A DNA stretch of 64,000 bases from assembly GCF_048403405.1 (NCBI RefSeq), contig NZ_CP183129.1; one strand, 5' to 3'. A model generated the notes under the pieces. It worked only from the letters and a program-made list of their open reading frames with translations. It ran no database searches and was not told the DNA's origin. The position numbers and the translations under genes are program-made. Positions 36,972-53,587 of this stretch are shown here, piece after piece. The DNA comes from Escherichia coli. GTDB taxonomy: Bacteria; Pseudomonadota; Gammaproteobacteria; Enterobacterales; Enterobacteriaceae. Position 1 is the stretch's first letter, and every line of letters begins with the position of its first letter.

Positions 36972-37199
36972 GAATCCTCCCGGGCGGGATAATGTTGTGA
37001 GTCAGATAAGGAGCAGGCTGAAGTCCGGAAGTTACAGGACAATGGCAGAAGGGAGACTACAGCCCGCAATTCGAAAAAGACCGCGCAGTTGCGCAGAGTG
37101 ATTACTATGGGGTATTATTCGCCAGCTGAAATATTACTTCACGTTTTATTGTTTATTCCTTGCCGCCCGCGTCTCCCAGCGCGGGCTTTTTTTGTCCAT

Positions 37200-37440
37200 A
37201 AGAAAGCCCCTCCGGAGAGGGGCTAAAGCCGCGTATCTGTATCATCATGCACATGGTGCCGGGTGCCTCCCGGTGAGTTCAGCCCGGTGCCACTAAACCC
37301 GCGTCATTCTCGTTTTGATAATCAGAGATTATACCGTCACCAGTCGCCCCTCCGCTCAGGGGGATTCACCATGCGAAATTTTTTTAACAAATGCCCAGTC
37401 TGACAGGCAACTGTCAACTTACTGAATTGTGAGCAACATA
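37200..37440. repeat. Structured repeat copy 1 (~240 bp) in the tRNA-to-nanS spacer
   Basis: Shares blocks aaagcccctccggagaggggct, catggtgccgggtgcctcccggtga, gcccctccgc.cagggggattcaccatgc, ctgaattgtgag with copy 2. Confidence 0.75.
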
Positions 37441-37685
37441 GCATTTAACGGGGAACCTGTTTTCTGCAGTAAAAAGGCCCACCGGAGCGGATGGGCCTGG
37501 AAGGATAGCGGTCATGTGATGCCGGTTTCCCGGTAACTCAGCACCGGTATCTGAGTCAACGTTTTCTCTACTGGGTCATTTCCGATACGCCCTGCCTGCT
37601 GACAGGCTTTCATCACATCTGAAAATATAGCACCCTGACTGATACTGTAGTACCTAAGGTTCCAGAAACTGTGATGTATCCGGCA

Positions 37686-37905
37686 CAGAAAAGCCCCTCC
37701 GGAGAGGGGCTGGAGAGTGGCGCTATGTGCCATTGCATGGTGCCGGGTGCCTCCCGGTGAATTCAGTACCAGCACCTGAATCCGCGATTATCCCATATAC
37801 CTACTCGCTGATTGCCCCTCCGCACAGGGGGATTCACCATGCCAGTTTCTTTTAACAAACTCCCCGCAAACCAGACAACAGTCAACCGCCTGAATTGTGA
37901 GACAT
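37686..37905. repeat. Structured repeat copy 2 (~220 bp)
   Basis: Paralogous to 37200-37440 with the same conserved hairpins. Confidence 0.75.
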
Positions 37906-37946
37906 TTAAAAAAAAGCCCGCAAAAGCGAGCCAGGGAAAATAAGTG

Positions 37947-38023
37947 TGGCGCGTTGTACTGGATTCGAACCAGTGACCGATTGCTTAGAAGGCAATTGCT
38001 CTGTCCGGCTGAGCTAACAACGC
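37947..38023 (-). tRNA. argO: tRNA-Arg (anticodon TCT)
   Basis: Clean cloverleaf read by hand: acceptor gcgttgt/acaacgc, D-stem gctc/gagc, anticodon loop cttctaa, T-loop ttcgaat, 3' CCA encoded. Confidence 0.85.
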
Positions 38024-38036
38024 AGGATACAGATAA

Positions 38037-38113
38037 TGGACCGCCTTCGGGGACCCGAACTCCGCGCAACCAGCTTCGAAGGCTGGCGCTCTTTCCTGAT
38101 GAGCTAATGGCGG
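38037..38113 (-). tRNA. tRNA-like gene, possibly tRNA-Arg (anticodon TCG), imperfect stems
   Basis: Cloverleaf can be drawn (anticodon loop cttcgaa) but acceptor and T stems each have a mismatch and the T-loop lacks the usual A58. Confidence 0.5.
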
Positions 38114-38120
38114 TATGTGA

Positions 38121-38196
38121 TGGTGGCCCTTGCTGGATTTGAACCAGCGACCTGGCGATTATGAGTCGCTCGCTCTCACCACTGAGCTAAAGGGCC
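38121..38196 (-). tRNA. ileZ: tRNA-Ile2-type (anticodon CAT)
   Basis: ggccctttagctcagtggtgagagc...ctcataa...ggttcaaatccagcaagggccacca; closely resembles ileX-type tRNA. Confidence 0.85.
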
Positions 38197-38245
38197 GGAA
38201 GCAGAATAATAATGGTGCGTAATTAATTCTGCAATCTCATCCGTT

Positions 38246-38572
38246 TCAAACGATTAAATCCTGAACTTCCCTGACTGTCTGCTCAAAACGTCCGGTCTCC
38301 AGTTCAACGCCAATCGCACGACGCCCGAGCGCCAGTGCCGCTTTTACCGTTGAACCTGAGCCCATAAAAAAATCTGCAACCAGGTCTCCCGGACGACTGC
38401 TTGCGCTGATTATCTGCTGCAGCATTTCTGCCGGTTTTTCGCACGGATGTTTCCCGGGATAGAACTGCACCGGTTTATGCGTCCAGACATCGGTATACGG
38501 CACCTGCGCTGTCACGCCAAAATACCGCCGCAGTCGGCATTCACAACCACAAGCGTGTTTAACGTACTGCAC
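38246..38572 (-). pseudogene. 3' remnant of a beta-class N6/N4 DNA methyltransferase gene
   Basis: 108 aa ORF holds only the C-terminal SAM-binding motif (DLVADFFMGSGSTVKAA...IGVE); no DPPY-containing N-terminal part and no room for it upstream. Confidence 0.65.
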
Positions 38573-38682
38573 AGCTTTTCAGACATAAAAAGGCCGCCTG
38601 ATAGCAGCCTTTTCACATTAAAATTAAGTTTTTCTTTACTCTGTAGTATGGGAAATTAGCATTCCCTACTGGGTTTATACAA

Positions 38683-39426
38683 CTAATCTGACGTCACACG
38701 CACCATTATACTTACTAAAGAAAAGTCATCATCAGGTCCGGCTCTCTCTATACGACGCAAAATACCATTAGAAAACTTCTGACTATTACTCATAGTATTT
38801 GATGTAAATCTGGGGCGTTTTTCCCAAACGTTATGAACTCCATCAGACATGATACACAGATGATACAACCCGTTAATACCAGGCAAATCTTTCCACGGGA
38901 TAAAATCACAGTCGTATTCCATATCAACATTTGAGGCTATGGCAGTCGTTAAGATATTTTTTCCCGGTTTATTCTTCAAATCTCTGGGTTTAAAAATATT
39001 CTGATCAATTAACATCTGATGTCTGGTATCGTCCTTCGTCAATTGATATGCTTTCTTTTCTCCAATGCAATACAAGCGACAATCACCAATATGACCAATA
39101 ATAATTCCGCTATCACAAACATAACAAAAGGTAAGTGTAGTAGCAGCTTTATCGAACTCATCATTAACTTCAGCTAACGACATAACTTTTCGCTTAACTT
39201 CAGCAAATACATTCGGAACTGCATCAAAAGATAAACTTGTCAATGCTGAAAGTTCAGCGATTGCCATGGATGAAGCATAACTGGCACCAGAGTATGAACC
39301 TACACCATCAGCTACGGCAAATAAGATGCCGTCTCCTACAATTTTTGGAGGAAGCAATGAATCTTCGTTGACCCTACCTGGTTCTTTTGGATACGAGAAT
39401 GATGAAGTCGCTATCAGCTGAATCAT
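38683..39426 (-). CDS. PP2C-family (PPM) Ser/Thr protein phosphatase
   Basis: 247 aa; PPM motifs NEDS, AVADGVGS, GDCRLY, IMSDGVHNV, DDDFSLV; AAGGAG RBS; AT-rich. Confidence 0.8.
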   Translation of the reverse strand: MIQLIATSSFSYPKEPGRVNEDSLLPPKIVGDGILFAVADGVGSYSGASYASSMAIAELSALTSLSFDAVPNVFAEVKRKVMSLAEVNDEFDKAATTLTFCYVCDSGIIIGHIGDCRLYCIGEKKAYQLTKDDTRHQMLIDQNIFKPRDLKNKPGKNILTTAIASNVDMEYDCDFIPWKDLPGINGLYHLCIMSDGVHNVWEKRPRFTSNTMSNSQKFSNGILRRIERAGPDDDFSLVSIMVRVTSD

Positions 39427-39529
39427 GACTCACTCCTTAAAAAAGAATGCGCAAAATCAAACGCCACATCATCTATTGTCTGATATCTATCATCTTTATC
39501 CATCCTTGTGCACTTAGCTATGATAGGCT

Positions 39530-40186
39530 TTATTTTTTATCATCTAAATTTAAGTCTTCAATTAACCGTCCCACAGCATAAACATCAGTCTTAACTGAAT
39601 ACTCTGCATTATATAAAATCTCGGGAGCCATATATCTTGTACTTCCCATACGGGTACCGATCTCGGTCAATTTAGTGGTATCCCCTTCGGGATTCGTATC
39701 TTTTACCAGACCAAAATCAGACACCTTGTATGTTCCGTCGCTAAATCGCAAAACATTAAAGGGTTTTATATCTCTGTGTAAATAGCCTTTGGCATGGATG
39801 TAAGCTACACCATCTAATACCATTTTCACTATTGAAATTTTTTGATCTGTTGTAAGAAGGTTGTTCGTTATTTCGTGCTCAAGATCACATTCTGCTTTAT
39901 CCATAATGAACCATGGATTCTCAACAAACAAATCGCACAAATAAATAGGAACAATATTGCTATGTACGCAATGTGATTGATACACAACCTCCCTTTTAAA
40001 ACGCCTTCTAAACTGCTCTATTTGCGCCAAAAGCTCTGGTTTTTCGGGTGCTAAAACCTTTCTAGCATAATCCCCGCATTCACCTTTATTGAGGTTGTAA
40101 ACCTTAACGTGTTCAACAAAGCCAAATGCCCCTCTTCCAATCAACTGAATTCGTTTTATAAAGTAATTACCGTGCTGTTCTTCCAT
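39530..40186 (-). CDS. Hanks-type Ser/Thr protein kinase (compact, ~219 aa)
   Basis: G-loop GRGAFGFV, Lys in YARKVL, catalytic loop HRDIKPFN, SDFG, MAPE, TDVYAVG; start set at MEEQ with GGTGAG RBS (track ORF extends to 40261); AT-rich. Confidence 0.8.
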   Translation of the reverse strand: MEEQHGNYFIKRIQLIGRGAFGFVEHVKVYNLNKGECGDYARKVLAPEKPELLAQIEQFRRRFKREVVYQSHCVHSNIVPIYLCDLFVENPWFIMDKAECDLEHEITNNLLTTDQKISIVKMVLDGVAYIHAKGYLHRDIKPFNVLRFSDGTYKVSDFGLVKDTNPEGDTTKLTEIGTRMGSTRYMAPEILYNAEYSVKTDVYAVGRLIEDLNLDDKK

Positions 40187-40260
40187 TAAGCTCACCGACC
40201 TAAATTGTAACAATATCCATATATTACAACTACAGATAAAAAGGTCCACAGAGTTAAGCA

Positions 40261-40290
40261 AAAAACCCGCACATTTGAGCGGGTTTATAC
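40261..40290 (-). terminator. tR'-like intrinsic terminator downstream of the late promoter
   Basis: On the late strand cccgctcaaatgtgcggg followed by TTTTTT. Confidence 0.65.
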
Positions 40291-40321
40291 ACTTTACAGC
40301 AATATATCACATTTACATAAA

Positions 40322-40350
40322 ATATATGCTATCTAATTGACTTTTGCAAT
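40322..40350 (-). promoter_or_regulatory. Late promoter pR'-like
   Basis: Late strand -35 TTGCAA, 17 bp spacer, -10 TATATT, about 50 nt upstream of the terminator, overlapping the Q-like gene 3' end. Confidence 0.55.
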
Positions 40351-41028
40351 ATCTCGCTGCAAAAATGCCGCTTTTTGTTGAGATCTCCTTTTCACAGTGC
40401 AAATCAGAGATTCGGTATCGAGGTTCATAAAAATGTCGAGTATTTCACGCCAGTAGCTCACATAATTGTGGCTCCAGTTGTCAGGCTTAATCCCACACAG
40501 ACGGGCAAGCTCCTGTTGCTGGTAGATATCATGTCCTATAACCCATCTCCTGACATCCTGTGCAGCCAGCCAGATTAATTTTTTCAGGCGTTCCTGTGTC
40601 TTCCCTGCAATTTTCCTGGTACCAGAGTGAGTCTTAAATTCTGTCCATGCCCACTGCGTTATCGCGATCTGATACTCCCAGCAAGTATTTCCGCTGTAAC
40701 ACCACAACAACCAGGCTTTATGATGTTCTTCAAGAGACAAAACAGCCCGCCGCCATGATGATGTAGAAAAAGCAACCTGACTGACCAGAGGAATTGACGT
40801 CCCCTTCGCCAGCGATTGTTTTCCCGGGATTGGTGGATTATCCCGCGTTATCATTTTTCCGGTCACTTCATCGCGGTACCGGATTTTTTTACGCCTGTAA
40901 CGCCCTGTATCGAACATGGCATTCTCCTGCCAGGCTTCAAGCTGACCTTTTGTTGCCCCACTCAAATCAGCGGTGGCGATAATGAGCTGCTCACGCACAA
41001 ACTGTAAATACTGGTTATTCATGCGCAC
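40333..41028 (-). CDS. Putative late-gene antiterminator (Q-like by position)
   Basis: 231 aa ORF directly upstream of the pR'/tR' unit and downstream of rusA. Confidence 0.45.
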   Translation of the reverse strand: MRMNNQYLQFVREQLIIATADLSGATKGQLEAWQENAMFDTGRYRRKKIRYRDEVTGKMITRDNPPIPGKQSLAKGTSIPLVSQVAFSTSSWRRAVLSLEEHHKAWLLWCYSGNTCWEYQIAITQWAWTEFKTHSGTRKIAGKTQERLKKLIWLAAQDVRRWVIGHDIYQQQELARLCGIKPDNWSHNYVSYWREILDIFMNLDTESLICTVKRRSQQKAAFLQRDIAKVN

Positions 41029-45001: not shown

Positions 45002-45157
45002 TTACTCCTCAGGTTCGTAAGCTGTGAAGACAGCGACCTCCGTCTGGCCGGTTCGGATTCGTACCTCGCAGAGGTCTTTCCTCGTTACCAGTGCCGTCAC
45101 AATGACGGTTAAACAGATGACGATCAGGGCGATTAACATCGCCTTTTGCTGCTTCAT
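45002..45157 (-). CDS. hokD: Hok/Gef-family type I toxin (HokD/RelF-like, 51 aa)
   Basis: MKQQKAMLIALIVICLTVIVTALVTRKDLCEVRIRTGQTEVAVFTAYEPEE matches HokD; track ORF has an in-frame upstream extension. Confidence 0.85.
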   Translation of the reverse strand: MKQQKAMLIALIVICLTVIVTALVTRKDLCEVRIRTGQTEVAVFTAYEPEE

Positions 45158-45394
45158 AGCCTGCTTCCCCTTGCCTTTCGGCACGTAAGAGGCTAACCTA
45201 CATTTGTGAGACATAGATTGGGCCTCAGATTAATGTTAAGCGTCTTGCAGGACGCGAAATGTTAACTGGGGCTTTTCTCTATCTGCCTTTCAGTGTTCAT
45301 GCCTGAGACAGATAGCCTCAAGCACCCGCAGCCATTCTACTTAACTCACGTCACCTCGCCAATATGAAATCAATCAGAAAGGTGATCCATAAAA

Positions 45395-53529: not shown

Positions 53530-53587
53530 TTTCTGGTGACATTTGGCGGTATCAGTTTTACTCCGTGACTGCTCTGCCGCCCTTTTT
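53530..53587 (+). ncRNA. dicF: DicF small RNA (cell-division inhibitor sRNA)
   Basis: tttctggtgacatttggcggtatcagttttactccgtgactgctctgccgccc + T-run matches the remembered DicF sequence; lies upstream of dicB. Confidence 0.7.

Follow-up and report, generated by a model that had tools for sequence, protein, structure and literature searches.

Judged by its sequence and position, the second of three tRNA genes in an Escherichia coli prophage is argN, the tRNA-Arg(UCG) of the ileZ–argN–argO operon of Stx and other lambdoid phages. The allele carried by the 64-kb stretch of DNA analysed here (hereafter, the window) is probably a known helper tRNA for rare codons that now experiences relaxed selection and is impaired in its folding, its processing or its use by EF-Tu and the ribosome, and it possibly keeps weak activity. 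Across related prophages, the middle slot of the operon is a graveyard of damaged or re-targeted tRNAs between two nearly frozen neighbours, which is a small, tidy observation. We infer both the reduced function of the allele and the cause of the relaxed selection from comparisons among alleles.

Records of Stx phages have carried an argN annotation for decades, and finding the gene matters little in itself: it and its cluster are already known, and RefSeq (PGAP) already labels the sequence identical to the window allele as tRNA-Arg. However, pipelines thereby give a probably poorly folding allele a plain tRNA-Arg label, so any count of the ‘rare-codon helper tRNAs’ of E. coli prophages would overstate the number of working genes. 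The allele is also relevant to users of argN on expression-helper plasmids, and the erosion of the slot might merit analysis at population scale.

The tRNA operon in the window

ARAGORN calls three tRNA genes in the window, and each is encoded on the minus strand. They lie in one putative promoter–terminator unit with the following parts.

38206–38234, minus: putative promoter pT (−35 TTGCAG at 38234–38229, 17-nt spacer, −10 TATTAT at 38211–38206), assigned by homology to a feature of phage SC370
38121–38196, minus: ileZ, tRNA(cat), tRNA-Ile2 with anticodon CAU (ARAGORN; Rfam, 72.5 bits)
38114–38120, minus: ileZ–argN spacer, UCACAUA, 7 nt
38037–38113, minus: argN allele, tRNA-Arg(UCG), 77 nt, CCA encoded (ARAGORN; Rfam, 43.4 bits)
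38024–38036, minus: argN–argO spacer, 13 nt (mean pairwise distance of 0.19 among seven loci)
37947–38023, minus: argO, tRNA-Arg(UCU) (ARAGORN, tct; Rfam, 70.1 bits)
37908–37932, minus: Rho-independent terminator, GGCUCGCUUUUGCGGGCU and then a U-run (terminator scan)

The putative pT ends 9 nt upstream of ileZ. Its counterpart in the phage SC370 record was annotated by the depositors as ‘pT; putative tRNA promoter’, at −38 to −10 of ileZ. No site upstream of ileZ passed a scan for the sigma-70 consensus, and pT matches 8 of the 12 consensus positions; its assignment as a promoter is putative and relies on homology to the SC370 annotation, a weaker basis than a consensus match. Across seven aligned loci, TTGCA and most of TTATTAT are invariant, and position 6 of the −35 element and one spacer base vary. 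A tRNA promoter is also mentioned in PMC2858043. At the other end of the unit, the terminator hairpin proper spans 37932–37915, with the U-run after it, and is homologous in position to the annotated terminator after argO in SC370. Two open reading frames that overlap the tRNAs (37788–38069, minus, and 37897–38142, plus) were treated as spurious, and weak Rfam matches over the tRNAs to Plastid-ycf2, YrlA and AaHKsRNA20, all far under their gathering scores, as artefacts of tRNA shape.

E. coli strain 118UI matches the window at 100% identity in this region, and RefSeq annotates tRNA-Ile, tRNA-Arg and tRNA-Arg there within the gene order Q, Ser/Thr kinase, PP2C phosphatase, truncated DNA methylase, three tRNAs, esterase, holin and lysozyme. 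In contrast to Stx phages, stx genes are absent after argO in the window prophage; the cluster belongs to an stx-less lambdoid E. coli prophage. By the 118UI annotation, the stretch between Q and the tRNAs (window approximately 38246–41028, minus) encodes the Ser/Thr protein kinase, the PP2C phosphatase and a DNA methyltransferase that lacks its N terminus; the methylase is full length at that position in most related prophages.

The 311-bp cluster matches 289 phage records, mostly of Stx2-converting phages, and 3,060 of 5,426 complete E. coli genomes. In the Stx2a phage F765, ileZ, argN and argO are annotated between Q and stxA. Like the annotated argN, the window gene lies between ileZ (CAU) and argO (UCU), downstream of Q and within a single putative promoter–terminator unit. 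argN of the phage 933W cluster was reportedly first described by Plunkett et al. in J Bacteriol in 1999. A search of the open-access literature on ileZ, argN and argO found no paper containing ‘ileZ’, and a search on rare codons and prophage tRNAs found nothing specific to the cluster.

Sequence and predicted fold of the window allele

Broken at its structural elements and read 5′ to 3′, the RNA of 38037–38113 is CCGCCAU UA GCUC AUCAGGAAA GAGC G CCAGC CUUCGAA GCUGG UUGCG CGGAG UUCGGGU CCCCG AAGGCGG U CCA. Its D arm, anticodon loop and encoded CCA are normal, with the anticodon UCG at 38079–38077, and 19 of the 21 cloverleaf pairs are standard. The alignment by cmscan has one non-standard pair in the acceptor stem and another in the T stem; an explicit check of the cloverleaf places these at A6·A67 (window 38108/38046) and A52·C62 (38061/38051). 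The T loop, UUCGGGU, has G58 (38055) where nearly all tRNAs have A58. Other conserved bases of the tertiary fold (U8, A14, G18G19, U33 and U54-U55-C56-G57) are present.

An initial annotation, which did not recognise the gene as the argN that is annotated in Stx phages, had described it as a tRNA-like sequence with anticodon TCG by hand folding, mismatched acceptor and T stems and an atypical T loop, between a clean tRNA-Ile(CAT) and tRNA-Arg(TCT). That description holds. ARAGORN calls the middle gene tRNA-Arg(tcg) with cat and tct genes on either side, the RefSeq annotation of the identical DNA agrees on tRNA-Ile, and the flanking genes score well above the middle one, which with 43.4 bits and two mismatches is not a high-scoring canonical tRNA. 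Even so, its score exceeds the gathering score of 29 for Rfam RF00005, with E=6.5e-06 over the whole 64-kb window, and the sequence is a genuine tRNA homologue, not a chance match. A gene that clears the Rfam threshold, is called by ARAGORN and carries the PGAP label tRNA-Arg is not dead by annotation standards.

The identity set of E. coli ArgRS consists of A20, C35, U36 or G36, and the discriminator A73 or G73. The window allele has A20 (in the D loop, AUCAGGAAA), C35 and G36; its discriminator is U73, as in every allele of the family, intact ones included, rather than A73 or G73. The chromosomal tRNA-Arg species of E. coli (argQVYZ with ICG, argX with CCG, argU with UCU and argW with CCU) share with argN a 9-nt D loop with A20 as well as C35 and G36 or U36, and carry A73 or G73. 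argN differs from these isoacceptors in U73 and in an unusual combination of U15 and G48. To our knowledge, no tRNA of strain K-12 has the anticodon UCG.

The minimum-energy fold of the window allele is not the cloverleaf. It is predicted at −27.0 kcal/mol, compared with −26.4 kcal/mol for the cloverleaf (a difference of 0.6), and combines a 5-bp acceptor stem with a T arm re-registered as a UUCGG/CCGAA hairpin, which G58 and A67 each strengthen. The corresponding fold of an intact allele keeps all cloverleaf pairs and adds one at the anticodon stem. The folding z-score of the window allele is −0.45 and that of the intact allele −1.49; ileZ and argO have −4.0 and −2.0, respectively.

The base at −1 (window 38114) is A in all 21 aligned loci, with spacers of 1, 7 or 9 nt, and is complementary to U73 (38040). 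An extended acceptor helix of 8 bp is therefore possible and could shift cleavage by RNase P.

Departure from intact alleles

Intact argN alleles (L019, L020, L002 and L024) have U67, G52 and A58, all 21 pairs standard and a T loop of UUCGAGU or UUCAAGU. They score 54.8–58.0 bits in Rfam, also below ileZ and argO, partly because of family-wide oddities that include U73 and U15/G48. The score of the window allele is lower by a further 12–15 bits. Relative to the intact alleles, the window allele carries U67A, G52A and A58G. A52 and A67 occur in no examined allele outside the window lineage and are therefore derived. G58 is missing from the intact alleles but recurs on other backgrounds, including a few alleles with perfect stems.

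A close known relative is argN of Stx2 phage 933W and related Stx and lambdoid phages, which occupies the same slot downstream of Q and a DNA methylase gene, in an operon with the same putative promoter and terminator flanks. It shares with the window allele the anticodon, the length, the 5′ strand of the acceptor stem, the D arm, U73 and the encoded CCA, and 70 of 77 bases are identical (90.9%, 7 differences; F765/933W type). However, the 933W-type gene has a perfect cloverleaf, the canonical T loop UUCGAGU and 54.8 bits, whereas the window allele has A6·A67, A52·C62 and G58. A much closer relative, in the STEC O103:H2 strain 12009 (L021), has all three defects and is one base apart, with U32 in the anticodon loop where the window allele has C32.

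Alleles on either side of the window allele are also known. An intermediate (L023) has U67, yet keeps A52·C62 and G58. Among its descendants, some have an extra A50·C64 mismatch (L094 in IMG/VR, L022 in an E. coli genome), and others have a D stem broken by G10U or an end changed from CCA to UCA.

Erosion of the middle slot

Across 20 loci that span the range of identity, the slot holds an intact Arg(UCG), a point-damaged Arg(UCG), a Lys(UUU) form, an 80–81-nt form, a variant of this 80–81-nt form whose T arm has poly-G expansions, or a 17-nt-deletion form, or is absent. The deletion affects the anticodon arm and is found in an Stx2c phage (L017). Where the slot is absent (L014), ileZ is followed directly by argO, and both are still annotated. 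PGAP gives many of the damaged forms no annotation, or calls them ‘tRNA-OTHER’ or ‘tRNA-Val’. The eroded relatives (the phiP27/Stx2e type of 80–81 nt, the Stx2c type of 66 nt and the multi-mismatch type of L003) have a homologous acceptor stem, D arm and 3′ end and the same flanks, but no default ARAGORN call and Rfam scores below threshold; the window allele is far less damaged.

Among seven loci with 77-nt alleles, the mean pairwise distance is 0.000 for ileZ, 0.136 for the middle tRNA, 0.190 for the argN–argO spacer and 0.019 for argO, in locus samples that, here and below, are small, partly redundant, overlapping and not independent, and with rates that take no account of phylogeny or recombination. 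The middle slot evolves about as fast as the adjacent spacer, whereas the flanking tRNAs barely change.

We also scanned IMG/VR for the invariant 3′ end of ileZ and 5′ end of argO at a distance of 78–108 bases, a search that avoids bias toward the middle gene. At least 120 loci were found, with 56 distinct slot sequences among the matches listed. A tRNA was counted as canonical if its stems had no mismatch and it kept a canonical T loop, G18G19 and CCA. By this definition, the middle tRNA is canonical in 46 of the 115 IMG/VR loci listed (40%), compared with 109 (95%) for ileZ and 92 (80%) for argO. The ileZ sequence is identical in 17 of 21 loci and, among the matches listed, in 102 of 115 IMG/VR loci; among argO alleles there is even a C50G change compensated by G64C. 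Of the 115 listed loci, 14 belong to the window lineage, in 6 variants, and its singletons in this sample include the G10U break and the change of CCA to UCA.

A minimum spanning tree of 34 slot alleles has 30 changes at unpaired positions, 14 that preserve a pair through G·U, 11 that break a pair and no compensatory doubles. Among stem changes, the bias towards pair-preserving G·U (14 of 25) indicates that structural selection is weakened, not absent. Compensatory changes among 36 alleles separate only the Arg forms from the Lys forms, with borderline shuffle controls (12 of 500).

These comparisons bear on the suggestion in the initial annotation that the middle gene is decaying or specialised. 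Decay is supported by the three departures from intact alleles, the damaged descendants, the rate of the slot and the minority of canonical copies; specialisation found no support.

Several slot forms have structures of their own. The 80–81-nt form keeps the acceptor stem and D arm of argN, but in place of the anticodon arm it has a stem, ACGAC/GUUGU, that closes a loop of 11 nt (ACGAUAACAGG or ACCAUAACAGG). Many E. coli carry it, as do phiP27 (L015, 345–598), L004–L010 and L012, and approximately 26 of the 115 IMG/VR loci among the matches listed. Most copies have a broken T loop and poly-G runs of variable length, and PGAP gives no annotation, ‘tRNA-OTHER’ or ‘tRNA-Val’. Only the phiP27 copy is called by ARAGORN, and only with the threshold relaxed; the call is Cys(aca) with a 4-nt intron. 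In L013 (417–493), L018 (416–492) and L102, the slot is filled by a Lys(UUU) paralogue of argN. It shares the acceptor, D and T arms, its anticodon stem is changed from CCAGC/GCUGG to UCAAC/GUUGA by compensatory changes, and its anticodon loop, CCUUUAA, has C33 instead of the near-universal U33. In L013, tRNA-Thr and tRNA-Gly follow the Lys gene, at the usual place of argO.

The neighbours have peculiarities as well. ileZ has an A27·C43 mismatch atop the anticodon stem in every allele seen; it is conserved, and one mismatch alone therefore does not mark a phage tRNA of this kind as decaying. In at least 7 IMG/VR loci, argO is cut off just past the anticodon arm (...GCAGCTGTGGTTGCACTCC...) and continues into unrelated sequence, which suggests a recurrent recombination or insertion breakpoint inside argO.

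Constraint thus differs greatly among the three tRNAs of the cluster: ileZ and argO hardly change, and the middle slot erodes or switches its anticodon. Because constraint differs in this way, we suggest that what the phage needs is decoding of AUA and of AGA/AGG, rather than of CGA.

Probable relaxed selection on a rare-codon helper

tRNA-Ile2(CAU) reads AUA after lysidine modification, tRNA-Arg(UCU) reads AGA and AGG, and a UCG anticodon would read CGA and probably CGG. The operon would thus supply tRNAs for codons (AUA, CGA/CGG and AGA/AGG) that are rare in E. coli and enriched in the prophage; in the open reading frames of the window, frequencies per 1,000 codons are 4.6 for CGA, 11.3 for CGG, 6.2 for AGA, 4.6 for AGG and 7.4 for AUA. 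CGA is read in E. coli by the tRNA-Arg(ICG) of the host itself, and it is plausible that argN is for this reason the least needed of the three and drifts.

Both the T54–A58 pair and the T stem contribute to the tRNA elbow, to recognition by RNase P and to binding of EF-Tu. In the window allele, U67A would open pair 6:67 of the acceptor stem, G52A would open pair 52:62 of the T stem, and A58G would remove the conserved T54–A58 pair of the T loop. Together the three changes would account for the loss of approximately 12–15 bits and make the UUCGG/CCGAA hairpin slightly more stable than the canonical T arm, and on the strength of this score loss and alternative hairpin the allele is most likely impaired in folding, processing or use by EF-Tu and the ribosome. 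It would represent one mildly damaged stage in the general erosion of the slot.

Possible, although clearly less likely, is that the window allele works fully as a rare-codon tRNA-Arg(UCG) and tolerates its mismatches and G58 at no real cost, as many low-scoring but functional phage tRNAs do. All detectors and PGAP call it tRNA-Arg, and its anticodon and D arms are intact, as are A20, C35, G36 and CCA. The prophage uses CGA and CGG. The allele and a one-base variant are frequent, in several copies per genome, and such a high frequency could mean that the allele is tolerated or useful rather than dying. G58 is found on otherwise perfect alleles and so may be harmless, and working tRNAs can have A·C and A·A mismatches, as ileZ does with A27·C43. 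Yet all three changes depart from the intact alleles and all are structural, the cost is 12–15 bits and a cloverleaf that is no longer the minimum-energy fold, the lineage keeps gathering further damaging changes, and the rate of the slot is near that of spacer DNA. We therefore favour impairment under relaxed selection.

Published data touch on this question at several points. According to a 2025 preprint, an O157:H7 argN on plasmid pRARE2, not necessarily the window allele, appeared only as fragments in tRNA-seq (bioRxiv 10.1101/2025.08.20.671396); a search of a plasmid collection found no pRARE-like record. A comparison of O157:H7 clades describes few single-nucleotide polymorphisms, located in the tRNA promoter, the ileZ–argN spacer and the first tRNA-Arg (PMC2858043). 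According to a survey of Stx phages, tRNA sets vary by Stx subtype and only two tRNAs are called in Stx2e phages.

Possible alternative roles for the slot

We consider it improbable that the middle gene has a specialised, non-translational role, such as a processing signal for RNase P that frees ileZ and argO, a decoy or escape from tRNA-cutting toxins or defence nucleases, or a source of small-RNA fragments. Such a role would fit the conservation of the acceptor stem, D arm, CCA and downstream spacer even where the anticodon or T arm is wrecked, the replacement of an Arg UCG by a Lys UUU anticodon arm, with compensation in the stem, and the strengthening of one alternative hairpin by both G58 and A67. 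But the slot is missing from L014 and internally deleted by 17 nt in L017, and is thus dispensable; conservation of the 5′ half is indistinguishable from simple youth of the alleles; and no nuclease or partner was identified. Nor do G58 and C63 covary across alleles: co-evolution of the two positions to build the alternative hairpin was considered and rejected, as all four 58/63 combinations occur.

Slightly less probable still, and frankly speculative, is that the slot, rather than simply decaying, is a tRNA cassette that diversifies fast through conflict with toxins or defence nucleases that target tRNAs. The three changes would then be a selected re-fold that acts as a decoy or resists nucleases, and the Arg(UCG), Lys(UUU, C33) and 11-nt-loop forms would be alternative solutions.

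Frequency of the allele

In 231 complete E. coli records, among them that of the type strain DSM 30083 = ATCC 11775, the best match is the exact 77-nt sequence, which also occurs in 6 IMG/VR loci among the matches listed; all 7 of the exact-match records for which annotation was listed have it as tRNA-Arg. A further 636 records match at 95–99% identity. The one that was read (L021, 98.7%) has the same three defects; other matches at 98.7%, identified by identity alone and not read individually, are from O157:H7 and other STEC, often with 4–6 copies per genome. Such recurrence marks the allele as real and widespread, and an error of sequencing or assembly, or a chance tRNA-like sequence, can be dismissed given 77 identical nucleotides in 231 independent complete-genome records and at least 6 IMG/VR loci, together with the strength of the match to the tRNA model over the whole window.

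Other RNA features near the operon

Directly past the operon terminator, the window has two copies of the STnc100 small RNA family (37194–37403 and 37681–37871, minus; 165 and 136 bits). In Stx2 phages, stxAB lies between argO and a single STnc100 copy, with AsxR/AgvB adjoining (L002). Further RNA families above threshold in the window are IS009 at 7671–7869 (225 bits), the sok antitoxin RNA of a hok/sok module at 45152–45327 (120 bits) and the DicF small RNA at 53531–53582 (77 bits).
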